From: a virus
Reading direction: 5' to 3' (one strand)
Virus record (IMG/VR): IMGVR_UViG_3300045988_122031
Span: 29,757 to 93,756 of that record
DNA: 64,000 bases
Shown: positions 30,507-32,716 of the stretch, piece by piece
Layout: every line of letters starts with the position of its first letter
Position numbering within the stretch: position 1 is the first letter of the stretch
Position numbers and translations under genes: made by a program
Notes under the pieces: generated by a model
Told to the model about the DNA's origin: nothing
The model's input: only the letters and a program-made list of their open reading frames with translations
Databases searched by the model: none

Positions 30507-31241
30507 TTATTTGCGAGCATTTTTCATCTGATCTAATATGGCTTTAGCTTCTTGCTGTCGCTCTTCTTGCTCCATATGATAATCCAATGTTTCTGCACTA
30601 GATTCATACGCAATAGCAACGCCTTTGGCTTGTTCGCTAAGTTTCTTTGCTCCTTCTCGAACCTCTTCCAAACCTTCCTGAGCAGCATTTGAACTATTGT
30701 ATTGATCTAAATTTTTCTGCAATTCTGCAATCTGCTGATCTGCCTCCATCTGGAGAACTACAGTGTCTTTTTCGCCTTTTAGTTTAATAAGCTGATCATA
30801 TGCTTGGTTTTTAATTTCTTCTTGCTTATCTTTTGTTGCTTGTAACTCTGGGATCTTCTTTTCGTACACTGATTTCTGTGCCTTTAACGTGGCTAATTTT
30901 TGAGCATAATACATTGCTTTTTTATCATCATTATTATCAAGATACTGGTCGATCATTACCTCGGTTTTAGAAATTTCTTCTTTTGTTTCTTTGAGGTCAT
31001 CTTCCATTGTTGCCAATCGACCAGCTACCATTGTGTATGTACCCATTGTTTTCTGGTAGAAGTCCTGCTTGTCTTTAATTGCAGTATTATATCTGGCTCT
31101 TGCTCCCTCTGGAGTCATTGCATTTTCTTTGATTTTCTCTGTGACTGTTCCAGATGCCACATTTTTAATCTGTTTTCCATTTTTAGTAAATTGCAAATAT
31201 GCGATAATCGCTATAATTACACAAATAATAATAATTGTCAT
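30507..31241 (-). CDS. Membrane-anchored coiled-coil protein (PspA/IM30-like or flotillin partner)
   Basis: N-terminal TM (IIIICVIIAIIAYL) followed by about 200 aa of heptad-rich, Q/E/K-rich sequence. Confidence 0.45.
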   Translation of the reverse strand: MTIIIICVIIAIIAYLQFTKNGKQIKNVASGTVTEKIKENAMTPEGARARYNTAIKDKQDFYQKTMGTYTMVAGRLATMEDDLKETKEEISKTEVMIDQYLDNNDDKKAMYYAQKLATLKAQKSVYEKKIPELQATKDKQEEIKNQAYDQLIKLKGEKDTVVLQMEADQQIAELQKNLDQYNSSNAAQEGLEEVREGAKKLSEQAKGVAIAYESSAETLDYHMEQEERQQEAKAILDQMKNARK

Positions 31242-31255
31242 AATAATTTCTCCTA

Positions 31256-32716
31256 TTAGAACTCACGATAATCGTCTGAATATACTTCTGGCTGACCAAC
31301 ATTATCTGTAGATTCTACTTCTTTATCTTCAGAAACAAAATCTTTTAACATCTTTGCAAGATCAACACCTGTAGATCCTTTAACACCATCTGATACCTGA
31401 TTCACAACATTCATAATATCTTTTGTTAATTTTGTTGTGTTTCCTTCTCCATACATAGTGATACTTCCTACATTTCCTAATGGTGCGGCTGCATTTTTAA
31501 CTGCTTCTGGGAACATCTGACACATCATTTCTACAATAGATGCTTTACCCATCTGTTTCATAGCTTCTGCTTTCTTTTCGATTGCTTCTGCTTCAGCAAT
31601 ACCTTTAGCTTTGATTGCTTCGGCTTCTGCTACACCCTTTGCACGAATACCTTCAGCTTCCTGCTCCATAGCATATTTTGTAGATTCAGCTTCTTTTTCT
31701 TTGGCATATTTGTTAGCTTCAGATTCTTTCTGTTTCTTGTATAAGTCTGCATCTGCTTTCTGCTGTGAAGCATATCTTTCAGCCTCTGCCTGCTTCTTGA
31801 TCTGTGCATCTAATGTCTGCTCTGTTACCTCAACGTCTTTGCGTTTCAGTTCAATTTCCTTTTCCTGACGCATAATATTAGCATCCGCAGTTACAACTTC
31901 AATTTCTTTACGTGATTTTTCTTCCTGGATCTTGTATGCTGCATCTGCCTCAGCTTTCTTTGCTTTTGAAATCTTTTCAAGCTCAGATTTTTTAATCTCC
32001 AGATTGTTATTCTTTTCTGCAATCGCTGTTGCTGACTCTACCTTTGCATCGTTTGCTTCTTTTTCAGCCATTGCTTTTGCTTTTTCAATATCTCTTTCGC
32101 TTTCAGCTCTGGAAATCGCAGCCTTCTTCTTGATTTTAACAACATTATCTACACCAAGATTTTCAATAACATCATTATCATCCATAAAATTCTGAACATT
32201 AAAACTGATAATATCTAATCCCATTGCAGCAAGATCTGGCTTCGCATTTTCTGTAACAAGCTGTGCAAATTTCTGACGATCAGAAACCATTTCTTCGAGA
32301 CTCATCTTTCCAACAATCTCTCGCATATTACCTTCAAGGACTTCTCTTGCGACCTGTCCAATATCGCCTACTGGCTTATTTAAGAAGTTTTCTGCTGCAA
32401 GTTTTAATCTTTCTGGATTACTGCTAACCTTTACATTGACCGCTGCATCTACATTGATATTGATATAATCTGCTGTAGGCACAGAACTTGATGTCTTAAC
32501 ATCAATTGGAATTAACTCAAGATTAAGATGATCTGCTTTTTCAAAGAATGGGATTTTTAACCCCGCCTTACCAATTAATGTCTTAGGTGTCTTTCTAAGT
32601 CCAGAAATAATATAAGCTTTATCTGGACTTGCTTTGACATAACCGCTACCGATAATAGCTCCTACGCCACCTACCGCAATAACCACTGGTACCACTGTTC
32701 CAATTACTTCAATCAT
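31256..32716 (-). CDS. Flotillin-like SPFH/band-7 protein (FloT/YuaG-like)
   Basis: N-terminal TM. SPFH core YIISGLRKTPKTLIGKAGLKIPFFEKADHLNLELIPIDV...DAAVNVKV. Long EA-rich coiled coil (AEAEAIKAKGIAEAEAIEKKAEAMKQ). The size matches FloT at 486 aa. Confidence 0.75.
   Translation of the reverse strand: MIEVIGTVVPVVIAVGGVGAIIGSGYVKASPDKAYIISGLRKTPKTLIGKAGLKIPFFEKADHLNLELIPIDVKTSSSVPTADYININVDAAVNVKVSSNPERLKLAAENFLNKPVGDIGQVAREVLEGNMREIVGKMSLEEMVSDRQKFAQLVTENAKPDLAAMGLDIISFNVQNFMDDNDVIENLGVDNVVKIKKKAAISRAESERDIEKAKAMAEKEANDAKVESATAIAEKNNNLEIKKSELEKISKAKKAEADAAYKIQEEKSRKEIEVVTADANIMRQEKEIELKRKDVEVTEQTLDAQIKKQAEAERYASQQKADADLYKKQKESEANKYAKEKEAESTKYAMEQEAEGIRAKGVAEAEAIKAKGIAEAEAIEKKAEAMKQMGKASIVEMMCQMFPEAVKNAAAPLGNVGSITMYGEGNTTKLTKDIMNVVNQVSDGVKGSTGVDLAKMLKDFVSEDKEVESTDNVGQPEVYSDDYREF

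Follow-up and report, generated by a model that had tools for sequence, protein, structure and literature searches.

A phage flotillin gene beside a membrane-anchored PspA-like gene, and the exchangeable slot in which it stands

Results

The DNA analysed here, which we call the window, is a stretch of 64,000 nucleotides (nt) from a virus, positions 29,757 to 93,756 of the IMG/VR record IMGVR_UViG_3300045988_122031. Within it, two adjacent open reading frames (ORFs) encode a flotillin and a small helical membrane protein, hereafter the partner. An earlier note, made by a model from the sequence alone, had drawn attention to this pair as a full-length flotillin followed by a helical protein with a single transmembrane (TM) segment; both ORFs were confirmed where it had placed them, on the minus strand, and this description of the two products was borne out. 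The genes and the spacer between them are as follows.

31256..32716, minus strand: flotillin ORF, 486 amino acids, ATG start
30507..31241, minus strand: PspA-like partner ORF, 244 amino acids, ATG start
31242..31255, minus strand: spacer between flotillin and PspA-like genes, 14 nt, with an AGGAGA ribosome-binding site read from the sequence

The assignment of the first protein to the SPFH family was upheld by profile searches. The flotillin matches Pfam Band_7 (PF01145) at 84.1 bits (cut-off 23.6) over residues 50-207, and it narrowly passes for Pfam Flot (PF15975) at 27.9 bits (cut-off 27) over residues 355-427. The NCBIfam model for FloT (NF058507) was aligned over positions 54-476 of 477 at 300.2 bits; because this score stays under the equivalog cut-off of 700, the protein is, as judged by its sequence, FloT-like and not a FloT orthologue. 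A single hydrophobic segment lies at the N-terminus (residues 4-22, Kyte-Doolittle 19-residue maximum 2.48), and residues 200-400, which consist of 19% Ala, 18% Glu, and 17% Lys and carry AEAEAI repeats, have the character of a coiled coil. The absence of an NfeD-type gene, also remarked upon in the earlier note, was seen again: none of the 10 neighbouring proteins gave a Pfam match to NfeD, and no membrane gene of the YuaF/YqiJ type was found among them.

The partner begins with a fully hydrophobic TM segment (residues 1-19, Kyte-Doolittle 19-residue maximum 2.56), which is followed by a Lys-rich linker, and it matches PHROG 33389, a family annotated with "unknown function", at E 4e-21. Two identities had been suggested for it, PspA/IM30 and LemA, and the first of them was supported by the family profile, by Pfam searches with family members, and by structure comparison. 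The Pfam family PspA_IM30 (PF04012) was matched by 10 of 11 close and 44 of 68 diverse family members, with a best E of 1e-10. When the profile of the 68 members was compared with all PDB sequences, Vipp1 and PspA chains came out on top at E 3e-7; query positions 50-207 were aligned in register with positions 28-186 of the chain, and the match was ~1000-fold better than that of the first unrelated coiled coil. The shallow profile of 11 partner sequences gave nothing meaningful against the PDB sequences. LemA was rejected, as was TelA, both being absent from the 25 most-matched Pfam families reported for the 11 members (at E<=1) and the 68 members (at E<=0.01).

The AlphaFold2 (AF2) model of the partner, with a predicted local distance difference test score (pLDDT) of 77, contains the TM helix, a poorly ordered linker, and helices at residues 44-102, 106-183, 185-205, and 216-243. 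This predicted layout, a long hairpin and two further helices, would be the layout of PspA and ESCRT-III proteins, and the best PDB matches of the model in Foldseek are Vipp1 and PspA over ~220 columns. The identity between the phage partner and PspA is ~11-16% in alignments. The N-terminal amphipathic helix α0 that is characteristic of PspA/IM30 was not found in the partner, which has the TM segment instead. At the level of the family, the sequence comparisons give good support for the partner as a divergent PspA/IM30 protein of the ESCRT-III superfamily, in which a TM anchor appears to replace α0.

The family to which the partner belongs is small. Searches returned 17 matches among 5.8 billion sequences; in a set of 1.84 billion proteins there were 237 representatives after clustering at 50%, almost all of which are ~245 amino acids long and were matched end to end. 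The closer subfamily of the partner is confined to phages: a single homologue was found in 185,579 species-representative genomes, and it lies on a phage-like contig of a metagenome-assembled genome (MAG) in the order ATPase, three TerD genes, partner. PHROG 33389 appears, from its sequences and their distribution, to be a small, essentially phage-only family of TM-anchored PspA-like proteins. A homologue of the PspA-like protein with 25% identity, gp247, is encoded by Bacillus phage G (L146, NC_023719 168844-179512), where an ABC permease with an ATPase (gp243, gp245) and a pair of PBP(NMT1)-OmpA proteins (gp249, gp250) flank it. This context matches the TM-PspA/Snf7 context that has been catalogued for bacteria (PMC11237479).

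We collected 80 IMG/VR loci with the 11-sequence partner alignment and sorted them by tblastn according to the gene upstream of the partner. This gene is TerD in ~48 loci, together with a Ca2+ P-type ATPase and sometimes with vWA/TerF, and flotillin in ~31, and one locus has none; no other slot content was seen in the 80 loci. The upstream border of the slot is formed by a conserved leader and by ORF110, which encodes a protein with no TM segment and always stands at this side of the slot.

32717..32781, minus strand: intergenic leader upstream of the cassette slot, conserved, with a AAAGGAGAT ribosome-binding site
32782..33114, minus strand: ORF110, a small conserved gene, phrog_20678 (one source gives Pfam PM0253)

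All of the ~31 loci in which flotillin precedes the partner belong to the species of the window and have the order ORF110, flotillin, partner, a helix-turn-helix (HTH) gene, and ORF135. A further ~10 loci have window-like flanks (ORF110 82-99%, HTH 90-95%, and ORF135 94-97% identical), but ATPase, vWA/TerF, and TerD stand where flotillin is found in the window, and their partner is 73% identical to that of the window. In ~38 more distant phages, with partners of 40-42% identity, an ATPase and three TerD genes lie upstream of the partner. There is thus no TerD in the window locus, whereas TerD is directly upstream of the partner in both the sister and the distant relatives. Metagenomic contigs gave the same picture, with one order of a Ca2+-type P-type ATPase, three TerD genes, and partner, and another of Nampt, NAD synthase, ATPase, vWA/TerF, TerD, partner, and an opposed HTH gene. 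The latter order, from Nampt to HTH, is the synteny of the window with the flotillin replaced.

The junctions of the exchange were compared between the window and the loci L044 and L037. Nucleotide alignment placed the breakpoints at 32711 and 31251 of the window, with flanks that are ~94% identical. At the upstream end, the flotillin and the sister Ca2+-ATPase share the leader, the AAAGGAGAT ribosome-binding site, the ATG, and ATT as the second codon; at the downstream end, homology to the TerD-variant phages resumes inside the 14-nt spacer, at 31251. The flotillin ORF exactly replaces the ATPase-vWA-TerD cassette within one phage species, and flotillin and partner are not a co-inherited operon. 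The linkage with TerD is the older and dominant state, and flotillin a replacement in one species; the TerD arrangement is the commonest one, and is also that of the distant phages and of the sole MAG contig.

Two unusual forms of the PspA-like gene were noticed among these loci. In one (L008 6001-7080, P0017), seen on three contigs, a complete TerD domain is fused to the C-terminal two-thirds of the PspA-like protein, which lacks its TM segment and the beginning of helix 1; the genes upstream are in the order ATPase, TerD. This fusion is either a Rosetta-stone hint of an interaction between TerD and the PspA-like protein or the product of a deletion. The other (L144 6001-6735, P0003) is a recombinant gene, whose N-terminal half is of the flotillin-linked type and whose C-terminal half is of the TerD-linked type, and it remains downstream of a flotillin.

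Both flotillin and partner are under strong purifying selection. Within the species of the window, the ratio of non-synonymous to synonymous substitutions (dN/dS) is 0.046 for the flotillin, with 28 of 31 copies intact, and 0.065 for the partner, with 31 of 33 copies intact. The synonymous diversity (dS) is 0.11 for flotillin, 0.21 for the partner, and 0.32 for ORF110, and the lowest value, that of flotillin, is consistent with a recent arrival. Copies that are frameshifted or interrupted by stop codons occur in L014 and L032 (flotillin), L052 and L036 (PspA-like gene), and L015, L027, and L043 (ORF110); they may be assembly errors or occasional pseudogenes.

The flotillin is 78-98% identical to members of its own phage clade, and ~62-71% identical to flotillins outside this clade, from Longibaculum muris, Coprobacillus cateniformis, and Lachnospiraceae. 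Near-identical flotillins are filed under "Caudoviricetes sp.", on contigs of up to 294 kb. That flotillin is rare cargo for a phage, as the earlier note had presumed, agrees with our searches, since tblastn found matches in only 10 of 50,697 GenBank phage records and the protein has no match in PHROG. Its frequency in viral genomes, the survey of which had also been proposed there, was determined by a pattern scan of IMG/VR that returned 49 flotillin loci, 31 of them from the species of the window; the remaining 18 encode flotillins of 44-65% identity on contigs of 23-424 kb.

In a rough neighbour-joining (NJ) tree, the flotillin of the window pairs with a 78%-identical phage copy (L011, with the order flotillin, RNase H, ATPase), and a third phage flotillin (L012, which follows Nampt and NAD synthase) is placed elsewhere. 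Because the phage copies are scattered in the tree, it is likely from these sequences that flotillin has been passed between phages after at least one acquisition from bacteria. We regard it as a swappable cassette of bacterial origin, from the Bacillota. In Longibaculum muris (L001-L004, 4746-5891), the closest bacterial flotillin follows a PadR gene, a gene for a HAAS-domain protein, and an ORF of 80 amino acids, and this locus has no PspA-like or NfeD gene. PadR-HAAS has been defined as a partner of the PSP (phage shock protein) network of envelope stress (Ravi et al., PMC11237479).

The setting of the flotillin pair in the genome of a large gut phage is real. The order ORF110-flotillin-partner is repeated, at ~93-96% nucleotide identity, in ~31 independent contigs of IMG/VR, which come from several samples and reach 166 kb, and the same arrangement in so many long viral contigs excludes a chimeric assembly or contamination by host DNA, two objections that the earlier note had raised against itself. 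Nearly all sizeable ORFs of the window are on the minus strand, and the GC content is even, at 0.29-0.37. PHROG matches in the window include a DnaE-type DNA polymerase, a RecJ-like exonuclease, a primase, DnaB, an ExoV/Dda helicase, Sak4, a DnaD-like loader, two tyrosine recombinases, and Ant-like proteins. The polymerase is nearest (~36%) to those of the large Clostridioides difficile phages phiCD211 and phiCDIF1296T and of Clostridium botulinum c-st. Upstream of ORF110, three genes, probably of NAD metabolism, precede the module.

33117-33887, minus strand: NAD synthase, with Pfam and PHROG matches
33905-35374, minus strand: Nampt-like gene, with Pfam and PHROG matches
35371-36207, minus strand: Prs-like gene, with Pfam and PHROG matches

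The Prs-like and Nampt-like genes overlap by 4 nt, with NAD synthase next to them, and the pair looks, by sequence, like NARP1 (Adps + Namat), an anti-defence operon that reconstitutes NAD+ (bioRxiv 10.1101/2024.02.11.579819). The three genes probably form one leftward transcription unit with the flotillin module. A scan for promoters and terminators gave no more sites than were found in shuffled sequence, and none was convincing between the NAD genes and the module; the sole "terminator" match on the downstream side of the partner corresponds to the T-arm in the tRNA-like gene described below. The module is placed at the end of a same-strand run, in a block of replication, metabolism, and anti-defence genes, and no holin, endolysin, or structural gene was found within the surrounding 20 kb. 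PADLOC models gave no match for flotillin, partner, ORF110, or the ATPase, vWA, and TerD of the sister cassette, and no gene for a classical Psp or Lia partner (PspF/B/C, LiaIFSR, YdjG/H) was found among the neighbouring genes.

Several small elements are located downstream of the pair. A tRNA-like gene (30238-30376, minus strand) is found in the gap that separates the PspA-like gene from the convergent HTH gene. It matches the whole Rfam tRNA model at 42.5 bits (gathering score 29), with 82 nt in place of the 15-nt anticodon arm; ARAGORN found nothing with default settings and, when introns were allowed, called a tRNA-Tyr(ATA) with a 68-nt intron at 32/33 and an odd anticodon. The element is conserved at 93-97% in more than 45 related viral loci and could represent a tRNA with an intron, a tRNA that has been disrupted, or a relic of recombination. 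Just upstream of it, at ~30393-30455, there is an indel polymorphism of ~60 nt, with the insertion in about half of the related contigs; we rejected the idea that this length polymorphism is the "intron" of the tRNA-like gene, as it is a separate indel outside the element. A divergent pair of strong matches to sigma-70-like promoters, one of 11/12 on the minus strand and one of 10/12 with TG on the plus strand, at 29884-29972, between ORF135 and the Cro/C1-type HTH gene (29979-30197), resembles a small genetic switch. Further along the minus strand are genes for a lipoprotein of 95 amino acids (29134-29421, lipobox LGSMTGC, DUF5052-like, phrog_2316) and for a protein of 154 amino acids with two TM segments and a coiled coil (27718-28182, phrog_31463), both of which are putative additional envelope-directed small genes.

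Discussion

We tentatively propose that the locus is a phage-encoded envelope-stress, or membrane-protection, module, a reading that we favour while giving it slightly less than an even chance. Its constant part would be the PspA/IM30-like protein of the ESCRT-III type, which a TM helix of its own would fix in the cytoplasmic membrane, in place of recruitment via an amphipathic helix. The slot upstream would receive interchangeable accessories, which are either a Ca2+-exporting P-type ATPase and TerD, with or without a copine-like vWA/TerF protein, or a flotillin. Both proteins of the window would be made early to mid infection, along with the products of the NAD+-restoring genes upstream, and would be located on the inner face of the host membrane, where the Lys-rich stretch after the TM segment of the partner suggests that the C-terminal domains are cytoplasmic. 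The flotillin might order the membrane or make it more fluid, and it would possibly concentrate the polymer of the PspA-like protein, in the way that YdjI acts on PspA in Bacillus subtilis; the PspA-like protein may seal or stabilise the stressed bilayer, which would keep the cell energised up to the point at which the phage can proceed to lysis. Resistance to membrane-damaging effectors of abortive infection is a possible additional benefit. In this proposal we infer co-transcription, topology, physical cooperation, and the protective role.

In B. subtilis, PspA needs the SPFH protein YdjI in order to reach the membrane (PMC8581546), and the sigma-W envelope-stress regulon includes pspA-ydjGHI, yuaF-floT-yuaI, and the TerD-type genes yceCDEFGH (PMC3498285). 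The membrane-protection reading is preferred because of these precedents, because all genes found in the slot are related to the envelope or to ions, and because the block is far from lysis genes. The TerD-partner fusion, the exactness of the exchange, the purifying selection on both genes, the confinement of the partner's closer subfamily to phages, the PadR-HAAS pair ahead of the Longibaculum flotillin, and the terD-"pspA-like" operon of the Jug phages also speak for it.

Several observations weigh against this reading, some of which concern the identity of the partner and others its tie to the flotillin. PspA normally cycles on and off membranes, and a permanent TM anchor departs from that behaviour. 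When the partner of the window was searched alone, it reached only 18.1 bits with PF04012 (cut-off 33.9; profile positions 29-217 of 220), and hhalign against the single E. coli PspA, a sequence that was verified against 4WHE, gave E 3e-4 with 39% probability. No PspA-like gene is present within 5 kb of the flotillin in 20 flotillin-bearing viral loci (the 18 IMG/VR loci outside the species of the window, L011, and L012), and in the sister phage L037 the partner directly follows ORF110 with no cassette between them. Because of the 20 unpaired flotillins and the cassette-less L037, the adjacency of flotillin and partner could have come about by chance at a recombination hot spot. The phage may also be temperate, given its two recombinases, Ant genes, and kinship with phage-plasmids; if it is, the beneficiary could be the lysogen and not the lytic cycle.

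The same loci speak against the suggestion of the earlier note that the genes resemble a flotillin operon with its own membrane partner, which is not supported. The partner family is essentially phage-only, with TerD and Ca2+-ATPase as its usual and older neighbours, the flotillin cassette was swapped in within one species, and the Longibaculum flotillin lacks such a partner, as do the 20 other viral flotillins; L037, conversely, has the partner without the cassette.

The 20 partnerless flotillin loci, together with the occurrence of the partner with TerD or alone, also underlie the most serious rival explanation, according to which flotillin is independent moron cargo in a recombination hot spot, obtained from bacteria or other phages and without a functional link to the partner. 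The breakpoints fall exactly at gene boundaries, as in moron exchange, and the recombinant partner of L144, made from both types, still stands behind a flotillin. However, the contents of the slot all share an envelope-stress and ion theme, cooperation between PspA and SPFH proteins is documented in Bacillota, and the two genes share a strand with 14 nt between them; we consider independent cargo unlikely, though it deserves attention. Classical ter operons confer resistance to phages and colicins, and the module might likewise serve lysogenic conversion or superinfection exclusion, by which a prophage or phage-plasmid would harden the envelope against bile, antimicrobial peptides, bacteriocins, or phages. 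Such a role would fit with the two tyrosine recombinases and Ant genes of the window, with a polymerase that is nearest to those of the phage-plasmid-like C. difficile phiCD211 and C. botulinum c-st, and with the lipoprotein gene nearby. It is nevertheless improbable in our view, since the genes belong to a long run of replication and NAD genes on the same strand and have no strong promoter to themselves, and PADLOC gives no match to a defence family.

A less conventional reading, to which we give an equally low probability, is that the partner is the effector of a calcium-responsive membrane-repair system of the ESCRT-III type, with which phages would counter lysis that comes too early or abortive-infection effectors that rupture the membrane. 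The sensors and recruiters would then be the Ca2+ pump, the vWA protein of the copine-like kind, and the Ca2+-binding TerD proteins, and flotillin would be an interchangeable recruiter that is independent of calcium. If true, this would be the counterpart in a prokaryotic virus of the Ca2+-triggered wound repair by ESCRT-III in eukaryotes. A role in the timing of lysis or in membrane remodelling, with flotillin rafts and an ESCRT-III-like polymer used for holin control, DNA entry, or assembly compartments, is very unlikely. ESCRT-III and PspA proteins do remodel membranes, and flotillins form membrane-attached cages; but the surrounding 20 kb contain no holin, endolysin, or structural gene, and the alternative Ca2+-ATPase/TerD cassette is poorly suited to a function in lysis. 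We give the least credence to a decoy role, in which a phage mimic of PspA would keep a cyclase of CBASS, an antiphage signalling system based on cyclic oligonucleotides, trapped. A CBASS cyclase of Bacillota is held inactive via its conjugation to host PspA (PMC11153139), and genes that probably reconstitute NAD+ as an anti-defence adjoin the module, but the phage protein is very divergent from host PspA (~11-16% identity) and the decoy would account for neither flotillin nor TerD.

The name of PspA goes back to its induction when phages attack, and the phage described here has a version of its own. Should the module protect the membrane of the infected cell, it would counter a large class of bacterial defences that kill through membrane damage, and it would do so beside genes that probably counter the depletion of NAD+. 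The polymorphism within one species, in which the slot contains flotillin, Ca2+-ATPase/vWA/TerD, or nothing, is a natural experiment on the roles of flotillin and TerD, and it could tell whether flotillins and TerD proteins work via an effector of the PspA type, both of which are long-standing questions in bacterial cell biology. PHROG 33389, until now a family of "unknown function", can be defined as a family of TM-anchored PspA-like proteins.

Comparison with known systems

The pspA-ydjGHI operon (samGHI) of B. subtilis is similar to the phage locus in that genes of the PspA and SPFH families stand side by side in a Bacillota setting, and that both proteins function on the inner membrane face when the envelope is under stress, a placement that is presumed for the phage pair. 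The SPFH proteins of the two are different: YdjI is not of the FloT type, and has been contrasted with classical flotillins (PMC8581546), whereas the phage protein is FloT-like and has an anchor of its own. The phage locus also lacks YdjG and YdjH, has a TM helix in place of α0, is borne by a phage, and was paired by cassette replacement.

Among the bacterial systems catalogued in PMC11237479, there are counterparts for the architecture of the flotillin and for the association of flotillin with PspA, and the TM-anchored PspA-like protein has a precedent; in contrast to these systems, the phage locus has no CesT/Tir chaperone, AAA+ ATPase, or YqiJ/YuaF (NfeD-type) gene. The yuaF-floT-yuaI operon of B. 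subtilis encodes a similar FloT-like protein of ~490 amino acids, with an N-terminal anchor, SPFH domain, EA-rich coiled coil, and Flot domain. Unlike bacterial operons that combine NfeD and flotillin, the phage locus has no NfeD/YuaF gene, and the closest bacterial relatives of its flotillin, in Longibaculum, are found behind PadR-HAAS instead.

In phages, the terD-"pspA-like" pair of the Jug phages is transcribed as an operon, and these phages carry a Ca2+-ATPase (PMC12880540). This TerD-"pspA-like" operon, described for the gut Jug phages and a few Bacillota phages of 159-197 kb (PMC12880540), matches the sister variants of our locus and its more distant relatives. The pairing is mentioned there in one sentence and no flotillin is reported, whereas the window has flotillin in place of TerD and ATPase. 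We found no paper on a phage-encoded flotillin in the literature.

The association of PspA with SPFH proteins in bacteria, TM-bearing PspA/Snf7 homologues, the mention of terD-pspA-like genes in gut phages, and a few annotated phage flotillins were therefore already known. What appears to be new is that a phage combines a flotillin and a PspA-like protein with a TM anchor, as is the recognition of PHROG 33389 as a phage-restricted PspA-like family that is almost always coupled to TerD/Ca2+-ATPase genes. The finding that flotillin and the Ca2+-ATPase-vWA-TerD cassette are exact alternatives within one phage species also appears to be new.

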